Of a stretch of 43,107 nucleotides of DNA, positions 22,814 through 39,371 are shown in pieces. Positions within the stretch are counted from its first letter, which is position 1; each line of letters opens with the position of its first letter. Under the pieces are notes generated by a model. The model saw nothing but the letters and a program-made list of their open reading frames with translations, was not told where the DNA came from and did not search any database. This DNA comes from Rozella allomycis CSF55. Its lineage: Eukaryota. A program made the position numbers and the translations under genes. The stretch covers positions 1 to 43,107 of the forward strand of contig KE560502.1 of assembly GCA_000442015.1 (NCBI GenBank), read 5' to 3'.

Positions 22814-25800
22814 ATGCCCAACATAGATTTGCCATTAGATATCAGGGAGAAATTGCAAGATTTAGAGCTTGAATTAAGGGTCGGTGATATAACTTTGCAA
22901 GGGTATGAAAAGAAGAAGGCTAGTTTGATGGCAAGTTTGAGTAGTAGGGATGAAAATATTGGGCATGATAGAATGAACTATAAATCGCCTGAAAATAAAG
23001 AAAAATATTATACGAACGGAAAAGAACAAGAGGATGATTTTAAACAATTGAATGCTCTGGAAGAAAAGGAGGAAAATAATAACGAAACCTTAAAGTCTCA
23101 AGAATACAATACGTTTGTTGAAATAAAAGGAAATAAAAGAACTGATTCATATAAATACATGTCGTTATATTCAAATACGTGGCTTGATCGGTATGGTCCC
23201 AAAAAGGTGGTGGATGAAAATTGGGAAAATAAGTCTATAGATAACTTGACTGATGTGACCATACATAGCAACGTGTATGGAGGAAGTTTAAGGGACGAAT
23301 TATCCAATACATTGATGCAGAATTTTACGACCATAGCTGCCATGTTAAGATTTAGGGCTTATCAAATGGGGGACAAGGAGTGCGTAACAGTTTCAGGAAA
23401 ATCAATAGAGAGTATAACATATGGCAAATTAAACTCGAAAGCGGAAAGGATATCGCAAGCCATTAAAGACAAGCAAAAGTATAAAAAAGGAGATAAAGTT
23501 ATTTTGTTATTTGATGAGAGTGAAATGATTGAATATTTTGTTGGAATATTTTCGTGTTTGTATGCAGGACTTGTGATTGTTATATTAGCAAAGAATGAAC
23601 TTTTGCCAGATGTAATTGATAGAACAAGCTGTAAATTAATTGTAACTTGCGACTCTCAATATAAACTTGTTATGAAGGAAAAGAAAAATTTTCCATTCGA
23701 TGTAGAAATTTGTCGAATAAGTGATTTGGGGAATGTAAATTTGAAGCGTAATGGGTTAGAAAGTTTAATCACATGTGAAAGTAGCGATAATGCTATCATT
23801 GAGTGTTTTGAAATGAATAATGAGATTATTTCAACATGCGTGGATCATGATTGTATAATGAAACAATGTTATTCATTAAAAGAAATATTTGGAATTGAAC
23901 ACAGTGATGTTATCATTAATTGTTTGAATGGTTTTGATGGAATTGGATTATTGACTGGAATCTTTCTATCATTGTACAATGGATGTTTAGTTGTGTTTTC
24001 TAGTAAGAATCATGTAAAAGCCATACACAAATGCAAGGGTATAAAATGGTTTGTTATTTTCATCTGTAGGAACATTTTTATTAACAAATGAATATTTATT
24101 GAAGCAAACGTTAAATGAAGAGATTTTTAAATCACTCAATTTGTCTAATTTCAGGGGTATTTTACTTTGTCAAGGGAAGCATCAAGAATTGATTGAAGAG
24201 TCATGTAAATTTTTGAAAACACATGGCGCTATTTATGACGATCTTGTTTTTCCATTCTTTATTGTAAAAGAGATTGGAAATGTTCTATTGTCAGCGAGGC
24301 CATGTAGAAGCAAACTAGGAGTGAAGAGAGAAAATGACAGGTTTGGACAACCGCTAAATGTTAAAGAAATAATAAATTATTCAAATTGTTTTAGTGTAAT
24401 TCTTCCTTTGGGATTAATACCGCCAAATGGTAAATTTTGTTATCTAGTCAAATCCTAGTTGAAATTATTATTCTCAATTCTTTAAAAAAGTCATGCAAAC
24501 ATAATGAAATCGGTGAACTATACATTCTGTTAAATCAAAATGAAAATAGTTCTTCATTTGATGCCATCAAAGTCGAAAATAAGACTTTTGTGCAAACTTT
24601 TATTATTGGATACATCCATCAAGGAAATTTTTATTATATAGGAGATTTGTTTGATCAAATTCATCAAAACAAATGTACTTTTTACGGGAAACAAATTTCA
24701 GAATTCTTGAACCATGAAATTTCCAAAATAGAGAAATGGTAGGGATCTTGATTTATTCTTTGATTAGTGGTGCATTTAGTATTTTTATTAATAGTGAGGA
24801 GTATCCCATCGTAATATCTGAAGTTGATGAACGTCTAAAAGAAGAAGAATTAAAAGCAATATGTAACTCTATAATTTTGGTACTGAATGAAAAACTTTCT
24901 TTGCAAGTCTTCATGTCTATTTTGTGCCCAATTAATACATTGCCAGTTGGAAAATACGATGTTCTTGACATTTATCGAATAAAAGCAATGTTTGAATCTT
25001 CTAATCTAAACCCATTAATGATCACAACCAATAATAAAACTAAAACATTTAATAAAGTACAAGGCGAATTTTTCACGCGCCAAAGTGAAAGTAACAATCC
25101 CGCTTTGATTGCCATCCCCTGTGTTGTTAATGGGACGAATTTAGATTCAACCAACTTTATTGATTTATTAAAAAATAGAATGTCAAACAATAAGAACACT
25201 TTTTTATTCGAGTCGGCATTTAATAATCCTATTAAAGATGTAAAGAAGATTGATTATGAAACATTCTATTCCAAAATTTGTTCTGTTTGCTTCTATTTAG
25301 AAAAGAAAGGTTTAAAATCCGGTGATCAAATTTTAGTTTTATTGCCTCACAGTGTAGAATTTGTAGTTGCCATTTATTCAGGGCTGGGGACAATACTATT
25401 GTCAATATATTGTTGGGAGGAAGGAGTCAACAATCAATTAATGTGAGATTGACAATATAATGTACATTATATTGCATTATATTGTTGCACTATATTGCTT
25501 GACAATATTTGAGAAAAGTATAATATTGTGACAATCATTGAGGAAATTTCTATTTATTGATTTAATGATCGTCGTCTTCATCACTTGAATCCTTATTATT
25601 TTCATCATTTGCAGTATCATTTTCGTTATTCGCCAGTTTGAGAGCCTTCAAAGCGTCTACCACCGTGTGAACAGTCCAGTGACTTGTACATTTTCTCTCT
25701 GTTACAACAGTTACATTTGTAATGATGAGGTTTATCTTCAATCTCTTTAAAAAACACATAAAGACGATCTTTGTTCGTCGGATATTTTTCCATTTAACTG

Positions 25801-27689
25801 CCAGGTGAACAATATGTCCGTATTTTGACACAATATTCCGCAATATATTGTACAATATATTGTGTGAATATATTGCAATTAATGTACATTATATTGTTGG
25901 ACGTGACACCTCAACAATCATTAATTGTGAGACTACAATATTTACAATATTACAATACATTAATTGTTTCCCCAGCCCTGCATTTATTCATGCATTCTGT
26001 TTGGTTTAGTGGCTATTCCTTTTGAACCAATTCTTCAAAATAATCTAATGGAAGACATTTCGTGGATTTTATCAATTTTATCAAGGGTTGAATGCAAGGG
26101 TATACTAACAAATTCCTCTGGTGAATCAACATTGGCGAATAAAAATGTTCTGGTTATGGCTAAAGAGAAAAATATTTCAATACCCAAAACATTTAATTTG
26201 AAATCAATTTCAAATCATGCGAAAAGAGATGGGACGTTCAATGTTGATCCAGAGGCGACTGTAGTCATTCAAATCATACCAAAACAACAAGAATCAGAAA
26301 TTGATGATGCATCAAATGGGAATATTTATGATTTTGATTTCATACAATTGACTCATAGAGAATTAATATTTCAAACTTATTGCGTTATTAACAATATAAA
26401 CAATTCCGTAAACTCCTCGCATATTTTATCAACAATCTCTCCTCAAACTCTGTTTGGATTGATCCAATGTTGCTTTATTGGCCTTGTTTTAAACTGTTCG
26501 ACTATAATATATAATTTTTCAAACTTTGTACAAAATCCAGTCGGCTGGTTTCAATTAATTGATCATTATTCTGGTAATGTCTTATAACTTTTTCAATAGT
26601 TTCATATGTCTCTCTAAGTGATTTTATGGCTAACCACATTGTTAAAACTTTCCATGTTGACTACAGAAATTTTACCCTTTCAAAGCTCGAGAATTTTGAA
26701 ATTGTGTCAAAAGGCTCCATCAGCAATTTAATTATTAAAGACCTAATTTCTACACTCCTCCCGAATGGATTTAAAGAATCCAGCATATCCATATCAATTA
26801 GCACCGCAACAGCAGCCATTCTTATTTCAAGCAAGCTAACATTATTCGATCAATCAATCGTGAATCCTTCTTATCAAAACTTAAGAAACATCATTCCACT
26901 TCAAAGTTCATCCCTTCGAACAGTAAATCAATCATTCCAAATATGTTTTAGACCGCCACTTTCAAAATCGGCATTCTAAATCCAAATACAAACGTTATTT
27001 TAGCACATGACCAATTAGGATCTGTAATTATATCTGCTAATCGTTCGTTACCCAATGAAAATACAATTTTAATAGACAAAGAACAGTTTATTGATACTGG
27101 CCTTTTCGGATTTATAACNCATTCTAAATCCAAATACAAAAGTTATTTTTGTACATGACCAATTAGGATCTGTAATTATATCTGTTAATCGTTTGTTACC
27201 CAATGAAAATACAATCTTAATAGACAAAGAACAGTTTATTGATACTGGCCTTTTCGGATTTATAACCAAAGATTCTACCACAAATAACGATTCTCTTTTT
27301 ATATTTTCTACATCTGAAAACTTAATATTTGTTGGAAATTGTATCCACAGCCCTGAAATTATTGAATACTCATTGTTCAAGAACTCTGAATTCATTAAAG
27401 ACTGGTATACTATTAACAGCGTGCATTATCTAGTTACATTGTACAATATGAAAGTAAATTGTATTTGCTAATTGAAGTTGAGGATAAAAAATGTATAATA
27501 AATTGCATACAGAGCTGTTCAGTTCATATCCTTGGTGAATTTAAGTTCACTCCGGACTATTTTTACTTTGTTCAAAATGGAAGACTTCCAGTAGACAAGC
27601 AAGGTAATAAGTTAAGAAGTAAAGCCGTGAAACTCATTAAACAAAATATACTTCCCGTGATTTATTGTCATCAAGTAAACTTAAAATAA
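22814..27689 (+). CDS. DIP2: DIP2-like protein (DMAP1-binding domain + two FAAL/AMP-binding-like domains), interrupted by a transposon; possibly a pseudogenised allele
   Basis: LPLDIREKLQDLELELRVGDITLQGYEKKK is the DIP2 N-terminal motif. Two adenylation-like units follow (ITYGKLNSKAERI..GDKVILLF; GLKSGDQILVLLPHSVEFVVAIYSCIL; FIDTGLFGF). The frame is broken at 25379-25988. Confidence 0.85.
25379..25980. mobile_element. Non-autonomous hAT-type DNA transposon (602 bp)
   Basis: 12-bp TIRs CAGGGCTGGGGA / TCCCCAGCCCTG; 8-bp TSD CATTTATT at 25371-25378 and 25981-25988; subterminal CAATAT/ATATTG arrays. Removing the element restores VVAIYSCILFGLVAIP. Confidence 0.93.
26972..27266 (+). repeat. 147-bp direct duplication flanking an N (probable haplotype overlap at a contig join)
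   Basis: 26972-27118 and 27120-27266 are near-identical (6 differences) and separated by the N at 27119. Confidence 0.85.
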
Positions 27690-27728
27690 ATGGCAAAAAA
27701 TATTTCATATATGAGTTTTATTCAATGT

Positions 27729-30046
27729 TCAATTTTCATTTGGACTCGTTTCATTCATTTCTTCTCCTCCGTAATCAATCGACTGTTTTTGAACCTTTTC
27801 TCTCACTTTGTTCAAATCCTCTTTCAACTGTAATAGTTCATCTCCAGAGTATCTAATTTCAATCGATTGTTCGAGATATCTTAGTACATTTTGTTCTATT
27901 AAATCCAAGGGGCTGATTCCATTTGTGCCGAAAAACTTTTGCAGCTTTGCTAGCCTCTTTTGTCTAGAATTCTTGGTTTCTTCAATGTCTAAGGCAAACG
28001 TAGGCATAGCTTCACTGCCTATAAATGAAAGCAGTTCCACAATCTCGTCATCATTGTCTACTAAATACTTTAGCGAAAGCAAAGATTTCTGGACCGGATC
28101 AATATTACTTCCAGTAAGTATCAGCATATCTGAAGGAGGAATAATACCAAACACTTTTTCCAATTTATTAGATCTCTTCATATGAACCTTCTTTTCTTCA
28201 GGATTCAATGGTTCTCTAAACTTACCCTTTCTTTGCTCTTTTTCCAAAAGGCGTAAGTTAATACGTTCACCTAAAAATTCTTGGAGCTTTTCAATCTTCT
28301 TCTTTGGATCGTTATATATATTTGTTGTAAACGAACTATCTGTGGAACTTGTTCTTGATCGGAATTCTCCTGTTGTCGTATCAAATCTATTGTTGGACCT
28401 TTCCATGGATAGCATAATGTCTTTTGTTCTATTTATTTCTAGATACTCTGGTTCCACGATCGCCGGTATCAGTTTCTTGATTGGAGCGACTAGACTTTGC
28501 TGAACAACTCTTTCATCTAAATTCTCGCCGAAATATCCCAATAATTTCTTGTTTCTTTTTGTTAGAACCATTTTTTGTTCAGCGGTAATAGTATTCGTAG
28601 TTTTAATTTCTTCAATATTTTCATCACTGGTGGATTGGATACTAGAAACATAGTTTTCATACAAATTTTGTGATTTAAGGGCAGTTTTTTGTAATTGATC
28701 GCCAAAGAAGGTATTTAACTTGTCAACCTTTTTTAGCTTTAACATTTTGGAAGAAATTTCGTCGGATGCATTAGATAAAGTGAATTCTTTTTCATTACTA
28801 CTTTCGACATCTTCAACATTTATATTATCCAATTGGGATAGCATTACGTTCTCTGAAATTTTTTGACCAAAAAATTTGTTTAATCTTTTCTCCTTTAACT
28901 GTTTCCGTAGTCTTTGAGTTTTAGATAGAAATCTGGCTGCAGAAAAGTATCCTTGCAATAGACTAGAATCGACCGTAAAGTAACGTGATATGGCGTTTGA
29001 TAAAGCAGTATCTTGCTTTTCTTCAGTTAACTCAGTCTTTATGTTTGGCAAAATTATTAATAATTTGTCATATTTTGGAGAATACGCACTGGCAAAATCA
29101 TCAAAGTCATCAGCGCTTAGTTCTAAATTAAGACTTGAGACTGGTAATTACCATTCTTGCTGTTTTTGAGTTGTCGATATTTATCTGTATTTTCGAACTT
29201 TGAAAAGAGTCTCTTTTTCATTAATGCATAAACATGTTCTTGTGCGTCATCGAAAACTGAAACGCTACAATTAGATTCATTGAACCTTATATCTTTTCGA
29301 ATTTCATTTCCTAGATTGACTTTAAGAGGTGAATCATCTTTGATGAACGTATTGTATATGTATTTTATCAATAATTGTCGCTGCACCGGGTTTACCGATT
29401 GCAATGTTTCAACTTCAATCCAAAACAGCAAGTACTCAATGCATTTCTCTTTTATACAGAAATCTTTAAAAAGATCCAAATGTATTTTGTTGTGAAGAAC
29501 AGCTTGAAATTTGTCTTCCGTTGACAAAATAGAAACCGAGACAACGTTACTCTCTTTACTATCTTCCATTTTCAGCGGCTTCGAATTTCTAGAGTTAAAT
29601 ATCTCTGGATCCTCATGTATATTTTCTACATTTACAATTGAAAACATGTCAAGAACGTCACCTATGACACTTTCGAAGAGTAGCGGAACCATATCTTCAT
29701 CATATAGAGCACCGCAAACAAGTAGAGAACTTTCAGGATGATCAAACGCGTATTCGGCTTCGATTTGTCCAGTTAAATACTCGACTGTACTATTTTTTGA
29801 ACACGTGACATGAAACATCTCGCCATTTTTAAGGCGTACTCTAATTCGTATGAAGGAATTTACATGCTCGACAGTCCTATCATGCCTCTTGCTTAATGTC
29901 TTAATGGCTCTTTCTAGCCTATTCGAAGATAGGTAATCTACTTTCGAGGGATCTTCAGAATTGTCGATATCCATATCTGATTGAGATAGCCTATTTTCTA
30001 ACAATTCATTGAATTCAGCTTTTAAATTATTGAAGGCAACAGACAT
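27729..30046 (-). CDS. RGS-domain protein with C-terminal KLxxFFG repeats
   Basis: RGS: FQAVLHN..LFKDFCIKEKCIEYLLFWIEVE..IYNTFIKDDSPLKVNL..VFDDAQEHVYALM. One intron at about 29123-29151 joins the two ORFs. Confidence 0.8.
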
Positions 30047-30094
30047 AAGTTAAATTCCCGATCTGCCGATTGGTTACGCTTTCGGAAACTAAAA

Positions 30095-32791
30095 ATGACT
30101 TCAGTTAGTCCTGTGAATGAGTTTTTAATGCCAGAAGTTTCATTAGAAATTTCTGACATTCGATCTTTGGTGATTTGTTTAAGGTCACCTGAGATGTCGG
30201 TGCTGCAAAATGCGTGTGAGTCAATAATCAGCTTATCTGCTGATGAAAGTAGTATATTTGATGTATAATTTTACTGAGTTTACTGAAAAAATGATATCTT
30301 TGGGTACAATTGAAATACTTAAGGATGTGCTATTTTCCACCAAGCATAATGACGCTAACCTTAACATCTTAAGGGCATTTAATGCAATTTGTGAAGATAG
30401 CAAAGCTATTAGAAAAGTAAACTAAGGAATCAGCCATAAAAAAGATTGAATACTCTTACAAAATAATACAAGAACTTTTTGATTTATGTCGATCTGGAAG
30501 TTCTGAAATAATCCAAGAGTGTCTTGCAATTATTGACAAGCTTTTACATCAAAGTATTTAGTTTTAATTAATTTAAGAGATGCATTCATTCCGATCTTTC
30601 GGGAGAATAAGGGAATGACTGATTTAATGAAATTAATGTCATTAAATGACATAACTATAAAGAAGGCATGTTTAACAGTAATTTGTAGTGCATTTTCTGA
30701 TTGTAAATCAATGATTTTAAGATTATTAGACCAAATAAGAAGTGAATGGAGAATTTTAAAAGGAAATATGCTTCTTAGTGAAACCTTCGCCTCGTCAATC
30801 GACCATAACTTACCTGAAATCACGTTGCTTATTTTAAAAGCGATGTCTTTACTTTTATCTGACAGTAACTTAAGGCTGAAGTAACCAAAGGGAGCAATGT
30901 CTTGGAAATGAAAAACCTGAATGTTCCTAAAAAAGTTACTTCAATTTTAGACAATATGGACTCTCCGATAGAAGTCGCCGAACTATGCTTTGTTGTGTTA
31001 AACCTCTTTCTAGCAGACAGTATAACGCAAAAAATTGATAAAGGAAGGTGACGTATTAGAGTATTATACTGATTTGAATGCTCTAAACTCTTTACTCCAG
31101 TGGTTAAATAACGACGACCCACGCGTCCTCAAAAGTGTAATTTCATGTATTAGTACAATTTCATATTATGGTAATGAATGATATTATCAGTAATAAGGTC
31201 CCTTAACTGGTAATATTCGAGAAATTGAACCATGGATAATGATAATGGACCTTATTGGCGGATTAAACTCTTCCGATGACGAGCTTGTCGTTATTTCTTT
31301 GAAAGCAATTAAAATTTTCTGCAAGAAAGGTATTACTGTCCGATGAATTTGTTAGAACAGTTCTTAGCGGAAATATTAAAACACAACATATTTGAAATAA
31401 TAGTGAAATATTCTATAAGCAGTAATGAAAGTATAAAATCCGAAGCCATGGAGTTAATTTATGTTGTCTCCTTGAATAGTACGTCATAAAGCGAGAATTA
31501 AGTAGGCAAAGCTAGATATAAGATAAAGATGATGGATTTACACAAACAAATTATTCAAATATTGCAAAACCATGAAAAACAGATAAATGCAGTAATTTGC
31601 TCTTCCCTACTAGCCCTTTCATCACTGGTTGAAGACGGTATCTCAACATCTCGAGATTTAATTAAAGGAGCGATAAGAATTGAATTATCAAAAATAGGCA
31701 TTATGGATATATTTTTTAGAATTCTTAACGCTAAAAGAGATCGAATGGTTCAAATAAGTGTATTTGAAGTACTTTCGAAACTCCTGAGAGATGGTAAGAT
31801 GTATATACAAGTAAAAGTAAGATGAATATAGAGCTGGATTAAATAATATCAACAATTTTTTAGACCAAGTTATAAAATGTCTTGTTCCTTCAGACATAGA
31901 GTTAGCAACTGCTAGTTGTGCCGTGCTCTACTTTGCATCGCAATCAAGTATTACATTATGTAAAAAGTAACAAAAGATGCAATTGCACAAAATATATGCC
32001 TTCTTAACGGTCTTCCATATTTGATAGATTTGTCCCATCATAATGCACAATCTTTGGTTGGTATATCATCAAAGACGTTGGAAAGGGTCTTAAACAACAG
32101 TAAATAGACATTTATAGTTTTATAGACCTGCCGGCAAAATACTGGTACACAGGAAAGGTTTCGGATGCTTTGCCTGACGGATTTTATGATTTTGGTTCAT
32201 TTTCAAGATCCCAGTTAGTGCGTGAAGACATATCCGATCCAATCAAATTAGTCTTTCCTACCCTGGAAATCTTGAAGAACGGAAACATTGATCGTACAAG
32301 AGAGGTTGTTTTAGTGGATTCATACAGTGACCCATCACTTCAGTCCCTGTTGAAAAATAGCAAAGATTTATTGTTGAAACAAACAAATGCATCTTTAATT
32401 CAAAAACTTTCTCTAATATCTGGGATTGTGTCTGCAGCGGTACATCATATTTTTTTTGATAGACTAGATGGGGGGAGCCAATACAACAGATTCTATGTCG
32501 CATGTAATGCATATAAATGAATTGAAGGTTGCTTTGAATAGCAATATCATTCCCATAGGGACCATAAAACGAGGATATTATTACCATCGGGCCATCCTAT
32601 TCAAGGTTTTATGTGACAAAATTCTCGAAATTCGTAGTACTCTGTGCAGAGGAGAATATCATCGCGCGTGGAATGAAGTTACCATAAATGAGCCCAGTGA
32701 GAAGAAAGTAGTTATCGTAAACTTGATGAATATGCCGGGAAGAGTTATGGACATAAATTCAAGCGAGGCCCTGTCTTATAGAAATATATAG
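30095..32791 (+). CDS. ARMC3: Armadillo-repeat protein ARMC3-like (C-terminal EDR1-type domain)
   Basis: N-terminal LVICLRSPEMSVLQNACESI; C-terminal LPAKYWYTG..DGFYDFG and NIIPIGTIKRGYYYHRAILFKVLCD..LCRGEYHRAWNEV. About 13 micro-introns. Confidence 0.85.
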
Positions 32792-32900
32792 ATTCAATCA
32801 ACAACGAGAAATAAAATTACTTTACATGGCATACGCGACATATAAGTCGATTTTCATTACTAATTCCGTTATTTCGAAATTTCCAATATTCTATTGGACA

Positions 32901-32914
32901 ATGACCGTGGTAAC
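32901..32914 (+). promoter_or_regulatory. Degenerate X-box ATGACCGTGGTAAC
   Basis: 10/14 match to GTTGCCATGGTAAC, ending 9 bp upstream of the DNAAF5 ATG. Confidence 0.35.
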
Positions 32915-32923
32915 ATATAACGA

Positions 32924-35342
32924 ATGCTAAATATTCAGAACAATACTCATTTGTGGAATATTTTGTTAGACAATAAAAAGACACGTTTTGAGAAGCAAAA
33001 ATGCATGAAGGAAATTGCAAATTTGATGAAAGACGATATGCTTGAACAAATTACGGCAGATGAAGCAATATGTTTAGCAATAAATGTCGCTATACTGGAA
33101 GCCTCCGAGAGCATTCGTTTTCAAGCATTAGAAATCATCAAGTAACTCAAAATCCAATATTTTCTAAATAACAGGAAATGCTTGAAATTTGAAGATATTT
33201 GCGAGAAACACTGTGAATCTATTCTAGAGCTATTCAAAAAAAGGCTTTTTGATGCAGAGAGTAGGGAACCGTCCGAAGAACTTAGAGCGCAACTTCTAGA
33301 CTTGTTGGAAATGTTTATAAGAGGAATTAATTACGTTGCTACAGAAATAATAGATAAAATAGCATTAATACTAATAAAAAATTCCAAGGATTCATATCAT
33401 GAATGTACCAGGCGATGTCTTCAGATCATCTGCCTGGGATGCAAAAAATTTGATAAGAAAATAAAGAGTCATGCTAAAGCCATGATAGAAAGTGCTTCAA
33501 GTTGTCTTAATCACAGGCATAGTGTGGTTAGGGCTGCGGCAATAAAGGTAAATAGTTCGAATGCAAAGAAAAGGCATTGGGTGCATTGATATTTGTGGAC
33601 ATCGATAACTTGTTTTCCGTCATTGAATTGTTTAAAAAGGCTGTGTCAACTGATAGTCCCACTGTGAGAGGCAGCGTTTATGAAGTTGTTCGAAGTTGGT
33701 GTTTAGAGTTGCCTGAGAGGCTAAATATAATGTGGATGCCTCTACCATTTGTTTTCTTTGGTTTAAATGATGAAGTTATTAAATATAAAGATTATAATAG
33801 CGAAACCTTTAGATTAATAAATTTAATGGTTGAAGATGAATGTCGAGACTCGATGAAGGCTATTTTAGATTTTAGCAAGGAAGATAACTTAGGTATTCGG
33901 TAATGTATGCATAAATTCATAATTATTAAGCTTTATAGTGCGTGAAAACATATATAAAATGGTCAACCAAATGTTTTTCCCTGAATTTCAGTTTTGGGAA
34001 CATACCGGGCATGTTTTTGCTTTTAATTGCCTGAATGAGCTTATTCCATTTGTTGGTCCTTTTATATCTTCTTATTCATTTCAAATAATCCGCAATTGCT
34101 TTAAGTTGGCTAGTGACGCTGAATGCAAGGCGAAATCTTTGTTACTTTTCAAAACTTTGTGTGAACATTCCGATGCCGAAATATTAGTTAAACTCACGAG
34201 TGACGAAGTGGGATATTCAAATTCTTACAATTCGTTCAATCTATGGCTTGAGTTTGTTGAAATCCTCGCATTTACATGCAAAGACAAGGATTCAATTGTT
34301 CCAATGTTTAAGCTTATTGAAGACAATTTTTTCATATATCCCCATAATACCAATAAACAAAGGATACTACGAATTACAAAATTACTTGTGGACAAGTTAG
34401 ATGAAAGGGTTTCATTCGCAATGCTTCTTCATCTTGATCCTAACAGGGAAGAATTTGATGAATTTTGGTCATTCGTAGGAGAAAGAAAACAAAAGTGTGT
34501 CGATTATGTTTTAGAAAGAGTTTCCACTTCCCTTGAGGTAGACCCGATTAGAATTCAAACGTTGATGGCCAAGGCGCTTCAGACACTAATGTCAAAAGGA
34601 TCATTTGTATCAATCGATGACAGAATTATTGGCATCATTGAAAAGTGTTTGAAATCAGATTACGAATTAATCAAACAAGGACTTGAAATTTTGAATCTTT
34701 TAGACAAAGGCGCCAGTGAAATTTCCGCGGTTAGCATTTTGGAAAATCTTAAATGGAAGGCAGGCTCAAATTATGCCTTGATTAGGGAAAAGATTGTGAC
34801 TCTTCTTTCTTCCAAAAAGATATTTCAATCTTGCTTCATTAATGACATTGTGTCTTGTTTAGATGAAGATTTAATATCGTTGAAGCTCAAAAGTATTGAA
34901 TACTTTCGAGAGTATGCAGCAGTTGCTCCATTAACAGGTATAAATTTCTTTGTTAATACAATAAAGATGATGAATTTAAAAAATTGTATACGGAATTGTT
35001 AAAGCGTTTGGATGATGCACACGACTTAGTGAGAGTTAACGCATGCAACGTAAGATGCGTTTCATAAACACACAAAGGCAATAGTGGTTCTAGCTTTGAA
35101 TTTACCCAACCCTATTGATGATATCCATGTTAATTATATCGTTGAAACTCTATTTATTCATCTTGATGATGCTTCTATTTATGTTCAGGTATATTAATAG
35201 CCAAAATCTATTTTAGGAAACAATGGCTAACGCACTCTCTCAAATTTCTTTAATAAGAAAAAAGATCGTTATGGAGAATTACGACAAGGTTAAGAATAAA
35301 TTGACAAGAGCAAAAGAAGTTTCTCTTAAAATATTTGAATAA
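32924..35342 (+). CDS. DNAAF5: Dynein axonemal assembly factor 5 (HEATR2)
   Basis: EPSEELRAQLLDLL, LNHRHSVVRAAAI, GIRFIVREN, LKWKAG, YTELLKRLDDAHDLVR, LFIHLDD. Six micro-introns. Confidence 0.85.
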
Positions 35343-35346
35343 ACTT

Positions 35347-35404
35347 TCACGTGACTTAATTTCTTAGCCTTTAATGATCATATGTTTGTTGTGGCTTAGC
35401 AGAA
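35347..35404 (+). promoter_or_regulatory. E-box TCACGTGAC plus TGTGGCTTAGCAGAA motif
   Basis: Both motifs lie in the 68-bp gap between the DNAAF5 stop and the transporter ATG. Confidence 0.45.
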
Positions 35405-35410
35405 AAAAAT

Positions 35411-36824
35411 ATGAGTTCCAACCACGAACTAAAAGAAGTATCTCAAACTCAAATGTCTCACACTACAGACATTAAAAAGGTAAATACTAAAAATCTTCCG
35501 CATGATAGTCTTCCATAGTGGATCCCGAAAGTTCACAACAGCCCACAGGTAGCTCTGGAATGTCTGCAACCATTTTCAATATTGTCAACTCTGCAGTTGG
35601 AGCTGGCACCGTTGCTATTCCTTTAAGGTATTACCATTTTTTCCAACTAAGCAAAGAATGAAACAGTGCGGTCTTGTATTGGGAACTTTGCTCACTATTT
35701 TTGCCGCTATATCAACTGGAGCCGCACTACATTTTCTTGGAAGAGTTGGAAGCATTTCTAAAGCGAAAAAATATTCGGACCTTGGTTTTTACACTTATGG
35801 CCGCAAAGGTGAAATGATTACTGTAGCTGCTTTTCTATTATTAATCATGGCCCCATTGATCGCTTACCATAAAATTGTCGGAAATTATCTAAACGCAGAT
35901 TTGTCAAACGTCGAGTCATTACCATCACTGTTGACCTCGAGTGAGTTTACTTCTCTTGTAATTGCGATGGGGGTAATCTTGCCATTATCACTTCTCAAAA
36001 ATATTGGTCATTTGGCCAAGGCTAGCTTAGTATGTTTAGTGTTTATATTGTATGCTGTGATACTAGTTGTGTATCAATGCGTTGCTAACATATCGAAGAT
36101 TGATTTCAGCAAACTTGTATTGTTCGATTTGAAATTAAGTATTTTGTCTGATTTATCTGTTATGGTCATGGCTTTCGTAAGTCACACCACAATTATTGAT
36201 ATTTTTAATGATATGAAAGTCCCTACTGTGAAGAACAAACTTTTTGCTGTGAGCATCTCTAATTTCATAGCTACAATATTATATTTAATTGTTGGTATAT
36301 TTGGATATCTATCAATGGACGTGTATCTAAAAGACAAGACTCCATTTGCCACTGCTGACAACGTTTTGACTTGGAACCCTGAAATAGCCTTTTTAGTTGG
36401 AAGAATCGCTTTTGCTTTTATGATAGCCATGACCTATCCCTTGTTTCTATTTCCAACAAGACAACTTGCTGATTGGATCATTAGGGAAACTTGCTCTTCA
36501 AATACGAAATTTATCAAATCTTACAATTCAAAGCCTGATTTAGTCAGGATAATAATGACTTTTGTATTTATCTTTTTCCCATATGCTATTTCATGTATCC
36601 CTGGCCTTTCTTTAGACTTCGTCTTTTCCATTTTTGGCTTTACTGCCGGATCATTGTTGGTGTATATTTTGCCTTCATTGTTTTTCATGAAGATAAAGCA
36701 ACAAATTAAGCCAACTTTTGGTGAGAAGATGCTTGCATACATGAATCTCGGAGTGGGATTTATTCTTCTTGTCGTTGGCACCACATATTATTTGATCAAT
36801 GCATTTAACTCTCCTCAAGTTTAA
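35411..36824 (+). CDS. Amino acid transporter, AAAP family (AVT/SLC38-like)
   Basis: IFNIVNSAVGAGTVAIP, ILPLSLLKNIGHL, MAFVSHTTI, YLIVGIFGYL, YPLFLFPTR, about 11 hydrophobic segments. Two 5' micro-introns. Confidence 0.9.
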
Positions 36825-37387
36825 TAAGTGCAACTGTATTGTCTAATAAATATATATGCAATCCATAAGATGTTTATTTTATTGAATTGGCTAGAGCCTA
36901 TTTAAAAAATCCGAGTATAAATGGTGCAGAAACCGAAGCCACATATTAATAGCTTGCTATTTTCCCTCCATCTTCATTTTTTGACTGGAATTCTGTTAAG
37001 TGGCCTTTTCGAAAAATATTCAAGTTTTCTGCCATCCAAAGTTGAAGTTTCTAAAAGCGGAGTTGCCATGGTTGTCAACAATAGAATTGATCGCCTTATA
37101 TGAAGCTGAGTCGTTCAATTTGTTATAGCGAGCGTATGAGTTGTCGTATGAGCCAAAACTACTCTATAAGCGTTTCGGATGTAGGTAAAATGGAATGTGC
37201 ATTGTGCAAATAAACAATATTCTCTTTGTTAGTCTCCCCTTTGCTTCAACGCAATAGTCTATAAAAAGCATTTTTTTCAATATGAATTACGAGTGAAGGG
37301 AGCACAAACCCTAATCATGGACAAAATGGTGGGAACCCGGGGCCGTATGTGCTAACTAGCGCGCGACCCGGATATATGTAACTCTAT

Positions 37388-37551
37388 TAATGTGAGCGAA
37401 GCGATGACAACCGCTAGAAACAAAATGCTTTTCATAAAGCCCAAATATGCAGTATCTGTGTAGATGCCCATCAAATTGCAAAATCATACGACGATTAGTG
37501 AAAAATAACGAACATATGAAATTTTGTAATGCGAGCGAAGCGAGTACAACC
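37388..37551 (+). repeat. Two copies of the dispersed GCGAGCGAAGCGAG motif (Helitron-terminus-like)
   Basis: 37388-37417 TAATGTGAGCGAAGCGATGACAACCGCTAG and 37527-37551 TAATGCGAGCGAAGCGAGTACAACC; third copy at 40599-40628. Confidence 0.65.
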
Positions 37552-37708
37552 AAAAAAGGGTTCAAATTCAGTTCAAATTTCTTCCTAATGCCGATTTTTC
37601 CGAAACAAAGTTTTAGGTAAGAATCGGTTTCAAAATTACCTAGAAAATTTACGAAAAACCGGATGAACTGCNATTTTTCAAATTGATATTACCACTCTAA
37701 GAGAATTC

Positions 37709-37721
37709 GTAGCATAGCAAC
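37709..37721 (+). promoter_or_regulatory. X-box (RFX) motif GTAGCATAGCAAC
   Basis: Fits GTNRC-N-RGYAAC; 7 bp upstream of the FAM161 ATG. Confidence 0.55.
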
Positions 37722-37728
37722 AGTCAGA

Positions 37729-39371
37729 ATGGAAACGCACTCAAAGTTTTATGACCCATTGAAATATACTACGCATTCCGAGCAAAGTGTAATAGAAATC
37801 GAAGAAGATCCACTATTTCAATACATTCAACAGTTGAAACTGTTAAACATGAAGAATATGGAGAAAAACCAGCGAAAATACTCAAAGTATATATATGGTC
37901 TTGCTAATTCCGATCAAGCCTCCCAGTCCCAGCAAACACAAGTGAAACGAGATAAGGATGTTGTCCAAGAAATTTATGATTTCAAGCCAAGAATTGAAAC
38001 TAAAAAGCCTCAAAAGCAAATAAATAGTGAACCTGATGATTTGAATATACATTCAAGAAAATCACTCTTGCATCGTGCCTTATTTCATCCTTTAACTGAA
38101 ATTCAAGAGAAAGTTACTAACGAGCCAAAGAAACCACGGGAATTCCGAGCGTATATACCTAAGAAGCCAGAAAAAGAATATATATCAGCTAAGAAATTTC
38201 AAATCTACATGTTAGAAGTTCAACAAAGAGAAGAATTAGAATTAAAACGAAAGTTTAAAGCCAATCCGATTCCTTCATCATCGATTACGCCAAAGTAAAT
38301 CACAAACATGGCTATTCTAGATTTTATAGAATGAAAACGAAGCAACAGGCGATGAGTGCCAAGTCAATGAAGGAACGGCAAGATAAACTTCTAGGAGACA
38401 TAAAACCCTTCAATTTATCCCAGTATAAACATAAAAAAAGTGTACATAACAACTTTATGAAGTTATATAGCACTTTAAAATCGAAAATAATTCCAACTGC
38501 CAAGAATTTAAGGCTAATCCAGTCCCAAAGTTTAGTATGGAAGATGAGCAGAAAGCGCTTGAAAAAAGAAAAGTAAACTTATTTAAAACTATTCATTTAG
38601 AAAAAAATTAAAGAAAGAGCTGTTAATTTATTGAAACAAAGTACCCTACCTCCACGAATGGCAATGGCAAAAACTTGCCAAGGTACCTAACATATTCTCA
38701 AAACAAAGATCAATCGAAAGAATCATTGACTCAATCATGTTATACTTTTAAACCTGAGATTAAAAAAATAGTACCACCATTCAAGAGATTGCAATCGTCG
38801 TTTGAAAGAAGGTTACACGAGAGGAGGGCGAAAAGAAGATTGAATAAGAAGTAAAAATGTTAATTAAAATATAAAATGCATCCAATTTAAACCTTTCAGA
38901 TTTCATAAATCCATCACAAAAGAGCAATCTTTGAAGAAAGTCCAAAAAGATATTGAATTAGATGAAAGGAAGATGCCAGAGTCTCGCTGGCCATTTTTGT
39001 CTTCAAGATGTAAGACGAAAAGTTTATCTTCGCCAAAATTTGATGAAAACCAGAGTGAAGTAAAAACCACAAATGCCTTTGACCTCTTTATCCAAAAGCA
39101 AATTCAAAAAGAGGAGAATAAACAACTAGAAAAAAGAAAAAAGGAAAAAGAACAGTTTTTATACACAAGAAAATTCCCTCAAGTCAAGATAGCTCTAAAA
39201 AAATTACTTGGACCGATACTCGAAAAAGAAAAAGTAGAAGAAAACAAGCGAAAGAAAGAATTGAAACTTAAAGACAAGGAGAACACTCTAAAATATACTC
39301 TAGATTTAAAGATTATAAATGAACGTCTAAACTCGAAACCTTTATTATTAGAGACATTTAGCTGGAAATAA
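37729..39371 (+). CDS. FAM161: FAM161 family (UPF0564) centriole/basal-body protein
   Basis: KFKANPIP, KPFNL, FKANPVPK, LPPRM, FKPEI..VPPFKRLQ, KPFRFH, DIELDERKMPESRWPFLSSR, KPLLLE. Five micro-introns. Confidence 0.85.

Follow-up and report, generated by a model that had tools for sequence, protein, structure and literature searches.

A candidate GT-TG micro-intron in the FAM161 gene of Rozella allomycis, where the 3' splice sites of neighboring introns follow a distance rule

Where does an intron end when no AG lies at the distance from the donor at which the introns around it end? The question is raised by the fifth intron of a FAM161-family gene in Rozella allomycis CSF55. The DNA studied here is contig KE560502.1 of that strain, a stretch of 43,107 nt (hereafter the window) with a GC content of about 33%; the genome uses the standard genetic code, and long open frames are found under table 11. 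The gene, O9G_003783, occupies 37729-39371 on the forward strand, and six exons separated by introns of 35, 29, 28, 26, and 49 nt reproduce its deposited protein, P0002 (491 residues), exactly. An earlier note, made from the letters of this DNA, had placed the gene in the FAM161 family and had proposed that its last intron is not a 49-nt GT-AG intron but a 28-nt intron that ends in TG. The family assignment held up, as P0002 scores 46.7 bits against the Pfam profile FAM161A_B (PF10595), which has a gathering cut-off of 29.9, and aligns to profile positions 17-339 of 364. When the last FAM161 frame was used as a protein query, it returned a single cluster with two 491-residue R. allomycis CSF55 proteins, annotated as hypothetical. 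The anomaly at this junction is real. From the sequence evidence set out below, we consider a GT-TG intron of 28 nt (38851-38878) to be the best single reading of the junction that is used, and we would give it about an even chance of being correct.

The positions given in the earlier note agree with the DNA. Exon 5 (38709-38850) ends in codon phase 2, with AA directly before the donor, and by itself matches FAM161A_B profile positions 176-223. The donor GT follows at 38851-38852, in the context AAGAA/GTAAAA, the proposed TG lies at 38877-38878, and the first AG after the donor is at 38898-38899. This AG is in frame, 21 nt 3' of the TG, and serves as the acceptor of the deposited 49-nt intron. 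Between them, positions 38853-38897 are without any AG, and the only G residues within 38851-38899 are those at 38851, 38859, 38878, and 38899. The upstream frame closes at a TAA (38852-38854) inside the candidate intron and the downstream frame opens at 38868, so that an intron with a length of 1 modulo 3, starting at or before 38852, is required. Both the 28-nt intron and the 49-nt intron preserve the frame. From the same donor, the in-frame ends are AA at 19 nt, AT at 22, AA at 25, TG at 28, AT at 31, CA at 34, TT at 37, AA at 40, CC at 43, TT at 46, and AG at 49. Although other in-frame choices exist, TG is therefore the sole one from 19 to 46 nt, before the AG at 49 nt, that ends in G. 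No alternative GT pairs with the AG at 38899 at a normal distance, the sole other GT (38859) being behind the stop. What is in dispute is the 21 nt at 38879-38899, which are coding if the intron is 28 nt long (38880-38897 then reads IQFKPF) and intronic in the deposited reading; the rest of the last exon runs from 38900 to the stop TAA at 39369-39371. A stretch of 47 nt free of AG is not rare as such. Of the window's 1012 GTA sites, 44% have their first AG at or past 26 nt no nearer than 40 nt. The unusual point is that the AG-free stretch occurs at a real donor.

A normal distance can be defined from the 69 other introns of the window, which were delimited by reading frame, two of them via the sequence around a conserved enzyme motif. 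Their lengths are narrowly distributed: 19 are 26 nt long, 11 are 27 nt, 14 are 28 nt, 19 are 29 nt, one is 30 nt, three are 31 nt, and one each is 32 and 33 nt, which puts 63 of 69 at 26-29 nt. The range of 25-33 nt given in the earlier note is corrected to 26-33 nt, with 49 nt still well outside it, and the length of 28 nt, which had been called modal, is third after the two modes of 26 and 29 nt. All 69 introns start with GTA (e.g., 359-385, 14028-14054, and 21246-21273), and the candidate's GTAAAA fits the local pattern, in which positions 4 and 5 are most often A. G is the last base of all 69 acceptors. The in-frame acceptor of every one of the 69 introns is also the earliest AG whose end lies 26 nt or more past the donor, and AGs nearer than this are passed over, 60 of them in the 67 introns counted, including 17 at 20-25 nt. 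The proposal that the 3' splice site is picked by distance is well supported by these counts. The narrow lengths reflect constraint rather than composition, because the first AG at 26 nt or beyond falls at 26-29 nt for only 24% of the 1012 GTA sites. At acceptor position -3 (67 introns), T is found 39 times, A 21 times, G five times, and C twice, so A is common there; position counts taken from the 3' end of the local introns revealed no branch-site consensus. Held against a U2-type GT-AG intron, the 28-nt reading ends in TG, and an AG end is provided only by the 49-nt reading (38899). By length, 28 nt lies inside the local 26-33 nt and is shared by 14 of the 69 introns, whereas 49 nt lies outside.

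Is the TG genuinely present in the DNA? Four sequencing runs, including X2, X5, X7, and X9 (the last a metatranscriptome, i.e., RNA), were compared with positions 19200-39199. One X2 contig (record 8, 1005 nt, depth 256) is the same as the window over 37966-38970, with zero differences and zero gaps. Genomic reads at 38877, a check that the earlier note had proposed, thus give TG and not AG. Because the X2 contig is identical here, the TG at 38877-38878 is real DNA and no error private to the assembly, and X2 is distinct from the assembly's own data, since it differs from the window at 20165 and 20170. The X9 run gave only scraps of 24-44 nt at 85% likeness across 19200-39199, and no joint that bears on any intron. 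There is also a second genotype. X5, which like X7 has low depth in 38543-39199, gave contigs (23971-36444) that differ from the window by about 1% (e.g., 33 differences in 3363 nt), and P0001, the other deposited FAM161 protein, is 96-97% identical to P0002, a protein difference of 3-4%. Some second-genotype variants also appear in X2 at partial depth, for example 106 of 287 at 33646, which suggests heterozygosity or a mixed culture. Metagenomic relatives of the locus were found neither by a search with the last exon nor by a gapped DNA pattern across the intron.

To assess if the disputed 21 nt are coding, we relied on FAM161 proteins of other organisms. A full-library search with P0002 gave 92 matches at E <= 0.001, one of which is Rozella P0001, leaving 91 non-Rozella homologs. 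A hidden Markov model (HMM) was built from the 68 of these 91 that span the junction, aligned without any Rozella sequence; an earlier HMM from a query-anchored alignment was discarded, as it favors the 28-nt isoform by construction. The isoform with a 28-nt intron scored 210.6 bits and the deposited 49-nt isoform 198.9 bits, a difference of 11.7 bits in favor of the former. The remaining in-frame isoforms scored 211.5 bits (25 nt), 209.9 (34 nt), 209.8 (31 nt), 209.5 (37 nt), 208.9 (22 nt), 207.4 (19 nt), 204.7 (40 nt), 204.3 (43 nt), and 196.4 (46 nt). By this profile, retaining the P-F block is worth about 10-12 bits. Pairwise phmmer comparisons agree, with the 28-nt isoform beating the 49-nt isoform against 72 of the 91 homologs and losing against 17. 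In the columns under IQFKPF, the homologs have T in 61 of 67, P in 48 of 65, and F in 59 of 67; Rozella matches the P and the F and has I in the T column. A T-x-x-x-P-F block after a K/R-rich stretch is present in Rozella FAM161 only if 38879-38899 is coding. The earlier claim that the 49-nt junction deletes a conserved motif is supported, as the residues lost fall on the best-conserved local columns, those of P and F, and a conserved FAM161 motif is indeed encoded after the TG. As a chance control, just 47% of random 21-mers of intron composition are open in frame, and only one of 1000 such open 21-mers scores as high as the real 38879-38899. That these 21 nt are coding, or were until very recently, is well supported by the comparison.

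Can the deposited gene models settle the matter? Both deposited proteins, P0001 and P0002, read RRLNKKFHKS at the junction, as expected of the 49-nt GT-AG intron. Within the same gene, the local rule places intron 1 at 38295-38320 (26 nt, GT-AG), while the deposited model has 38295-38329 (35 nt). The 26-nt version adds F-Y-R to the protein and scores 219.5 bits against the homolog profile, compared with 210.6 for the 35-nt version. Because the rule-based intron 1 beats the deposited one by 8.9 bits, the deposited models do not count as independent evidence and are unreliable at this scale. The other three introns are ordinary GT-AG introns: intron 2 at 38442-38470 (29 nt), intron 3 at 38573-38600 (28 nt), and intron 4 at 38683-38708 (26 nt). 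Just upstream of the gene, at 37050-37673, is a multi-copy element, with X2 depths of 834-4442 compared with about 300 elsewhere. Contigs of X2 and X5 leave out 622 nt by joining 37050 to 37673, and the element has many rearranged joints inside it; position 37672 is an N.

We propose the following course of events. In the functional FAM161 mRNA, the 28 nt at 38851-38878 would be removed as a U2-type micro-intron with a normal GTA donor and a TG end. The 3' splice site would have to fall within a narrow interval, at 26-29 nt from the 5' splice site and never past 33 nt. In FAM161, this interval holds no AG, and the spliceosome would ligate at the one position that keeps a G as the last base. 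The only in-frame choices inside 26-33 nt are TG at 28 nt and AT at 31 nt. The first and the last G of an intron pair with each other during the second catalytic step of splicing. TG would be preferred over other non-AG ends because of this role of the last G and because of the local rule, under which all acceptors end in G and none falls below the floor of 26 nt. The AG located 21 nt downstream may also serve, giving an in-frame isoform that is seven residues shorter.

The earlier note had listed three more GT-TG cases, in FPGS, RhoGAP, and ARMC3 genes. These fared differently: the FPGS candidate stands, the RhoGAP candidate is ambiguous, and in ARMC3 an ordinary GT-AG intron suffices. The FPGS candidate is a 27-nt GT-TG intron on the reverse strand (20156-20182). 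The first AG, at 32 nt (ending at 20151), breaks the frame, and the deposited model uses the second AG, at 39 nt (ending at 20144), which is in frame. From the donor at 20182, the in-frame ends are TG at 27 nt, CA at 30, GG at 33, and AG at 39. The flanking exons are fixed by homology, and a profile of 74 of 81 homologs gave no separation of the four in-frame acceptors (474.4-475.7 bits). X2 is gap-free at this intron, inside which X2 and X5 both depart from the window, at 20165 (C>T) and 20170 (A>C). The FPGS junction is a real exception to the first-AG rule.

The RhoGAP candidate is a 28-nt GT-TG intron on the forward strand (17518-17545). From its donor, TG is in frame at 28 and 31 nt, an in-frame AG at 22 nt falls short of the floor, and AGs at 33 and 35 nt are out of frame. 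The deposited protein drops 85 nt (17455-17539), of which 63 nt (21 codons) continue the upstream frame without a stop; these codons would be kept with a 28-nt GT-TG intron from 17518. An alternative is a 49-nt intron with a GTT donor (17466-17514), which is in frame. The region 17455-17545 has no solution that conforms to the rule, and a Pfam search with the reading frames flanking the junction gave no match, so there is no homology by which to choose. Another RhoGAP junction, at 18670, is that of an ordinary 28-nt GT-AG intron.

For ARMC3, the sole GT-TG candidate found (donor 32504, 28 nt) is unneeded. A 28-nt GT-AG intron at 32440-32467 joins the exons. In the frame that opens at 32468, residues 10-93 align to Pfam EDR1/ARMC3, a match that starts upstream of the donor at 32504. 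Between this ARMC3-like gene and the next gene, X2 and X7 contigs have eight extra letters (ATTCCGTT) behind 32862.

This leaves one to three candidate GT-TG introns among 72 in the window. All three junctions that break the first-AG rule (FAM161, FPGS, and RhoGAP) have TG at the single in-frame position within 26-29 nt of the donor. TG at such a position follows 6-8% of GTA sites. The product for three is about 3 in 10,000, a figure that is after-the-fact arithmetic and includes the ambiguous RhoGAP case.

Several observations weigh against a TG acceptor in FAM161. The strongest alternative is that the true intron is the deposited 49-nt GT-AG intron. According to this explanation, an older AG acceptor was recently destroyed by an A-to-T change at 38877, and its role passed to the following AG, in frame by chance, at the cost of seven residues that include the P-F motif; the recency of the change would explain why the 21 nt still resemble coding sequence. 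The AG at 49 nt keeps the frame and is exactly what the first-AG rule, obeyed by all 69 introns, predicts, and it is the acceptor used in both deposited proteins. Plain tolerance of TG is contradicted by two of the ordinary introns, in which the acceptor is not the TG ending at 27 nt but an AG 2 or 4 nt further on, at 29 nt (donor 27454) or 31 nt (donor 2553); relative to the productive AG, the skipped TGs are out of frame. A nearby AG therefore wins over TG. Consequently, FPGS and RhoGAP, where an out-of-frame AG lies 5 nt past the TG, are hard to account for under one simple rule. The context of the FAM161 TG is also unfavorable, with A at -3 and C at +1 (A-T-G, then C), and the profile cannot separate TG at 28 nt from AA at 25 nt, AT at 31 nt, or the 34- and 37-nt ends. 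Finally, in the study by Szafranski et al. 2007 (PMC2374985), human AG>TG mutations activated neighboring AGs and not the TG, which is how the 49-nt explanation would have FAM161 behave, and human TG sites were found only as alternatives beside an AG within 28 nt.

However, a 49-nt intron would exceed the longest of the 69 introns by 16 nt, and the protein would be without columns conserved in 48 of 65 (P) and 59 of 67 (F) homologs. The same story would be needed again for FPGS, where the next AG breaks the frame. A recently lost AG could have become any of several dinucleotides, yet the in-frame one is TG in all three exceptions and none of the five other single-base changes of AG. No RNA fold brings the distant AG nearer to the donor (minimum free energy -0.6 kcal/mol, z = 0.40), which speaks a little against the 49-nt intron. 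On balance we consider this explanation unlikely, although far from negligible.

A second explanation is that the copy in the window is a defective allele or carries an undetected error here, and that 38877-38878 is AG in a functional copy that lies elsewhere or in the other genotype. A second genotype does exist, as the comparison of P0001 with P0002 and the DNA of the X5 contigs indicate, and within the FPGS intron the window differs from both X2 and X5. Nevertheless, X2 reads TG at its full depth of 256 on an unbroken 1005-nt contig, and the remainder of the FAM161 gene is intact. We regard a defective copy as very improbable. If some other non-AG acceptor were paired with this donor, for instance AT at 31 nt or AA at 25 nt, the P-F motif would likewise be kept, and the profile scores (209.8 and 211.5 bits, respectively) are indistinguishable from that of the 28-nt intron (210.6 bits). 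This is slightly less probable still, as all 69 introns have at least 26 nt, AGs at 20-25 nt go unused 17 times, and AT would end in T where all 69 acceptors end in G.

How would a 28-nt GT-TG intron compare with splicing as it is known elsewhere? In budding yeast, the 3' splice site is found by scanning from the branch point to the first AG. The introns of the window resemble this in that the first AG past a minimum distance is used in 69 of 69 and nearer AGs are ignored. Unlike in yeast, the distance can be stated from the 5' splice site (at least 26 nt), and its upper bound is very tight. Introns of the U12 type are known for non-AG termini. The FAM161 candidate is unlike these, as its donor reads GTAAAAAT and not the extended conserved U12 motif, and it is only 28 nt long. 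It resembles the ordinary micro-introns of Rozella in its GTA donor, its AT-rich body with an in-frame stop, and its length; it differs from the 69 others in that they end in AG and that its own allowed interval holds none. Micro-introns of about 30 nt in R. allomycis have been remarked upon, in passing and for the S23 gene, by Whelan et al. 2018 (PMC6349667). In the literature searched, we found no account of non-canonical splicing or of an intron-length rule in Rozella, although supplements of the genome paper may carry intron statistics.

A further parallel is with the alternative TG-AG tandem acceptors of human U2-type introns, of which GNAS and TSPYL2 are examples in Parada et al. 2014 (PMC4176328). 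As in the tandems described by Szafranski et al. (PMC2374985), the donor is an ordinary GT, TG forms the last two bases of the intron, and an AG is found no more than 28 nt past the TG, at 21 nt in FAM161 and at 5 nt in the FPGS and RhoGAP candidates. There are also differences. That account puts human TG sites at about 36 among all introns, always as alternatives and never sole or productive. In Rozella, the product made with the candidate TG would be the conserved one and presumably functional, and candidates of this kind number one to three among 72 introns in 43 kb. In addition, the same study describes human TG sites as having a pyrimidine at -3 and a purine at +1, unlike the A and C of FAM161.

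Some further features of the window were noticed. An arginase-like gene has two introns, of 28 nt (2494-2521) and 31 nt (2553-2583), around a 31-nt micro-exon; the second, with its skipped TG at 27 nt, serves as a natural control. Active-site motifs, which we take to be those of arginase, point together with the surrounding sequence to introns at 2494 and 2553, and a 23-nt intron at 2499 called by a chain heuristic is false. A GTC-donor intron at 30044 is unnecessary, as the gene probably begins at ATG 30047, and 3111 and 3261 were rejected as splice junctions, being a gene end and a gene start, respectively. At 25370-25981, 610 nt are skipped by X2 and X5 contigs, and depth reaches 1360 in 25203-25869. 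The window copy seems to carry a repeated insertion here, within a large gene whose frames are broken over this part. At 26971-27120, an X5 contig skips 148 nt ending at an N (27119), and the frame chain breaks at 27118-27156. This is probably an assembly gap.

A practical consequence already holds. Gene models that allow only GT-AG and ignore the 26-33 nt rule misplace Rozella junctions. Four junctions in three deposited proteins of the window are likely wrong, namely FAM161 introns 1 and 5 and one each in FPGS and RhoGAP, and in each case the protein loses or gains residues. As a simple and testable predictor, the rule that a GTA donor pairs with the first AG at a distance of 26 nt or more could improve annotation. 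More tentatively, and with less than an even chance in our estimation, micro-introns in R. allomycis may be spliced as if by a ruler (26-29 nt, at most 33 nt), with TG serving a few percent of them (one to three of 72 here) as a constitutive and productive acceptor. If this is true, Rozella would be the first organism with U2-type GT-TG introns as a regular class rather than as rare alternative events, and many of the "long" introns in its annotation would be mis-called. If confirmed, the finding would mean that the demand for AG at the 3' end of an intron can be loosened where intron length itself positions the splice site. It would then bear on how the substrate is chosen in the second catalytic step of splicing, and on how the spliceosome changed towards the reduced splicing machinery of microsporidia.

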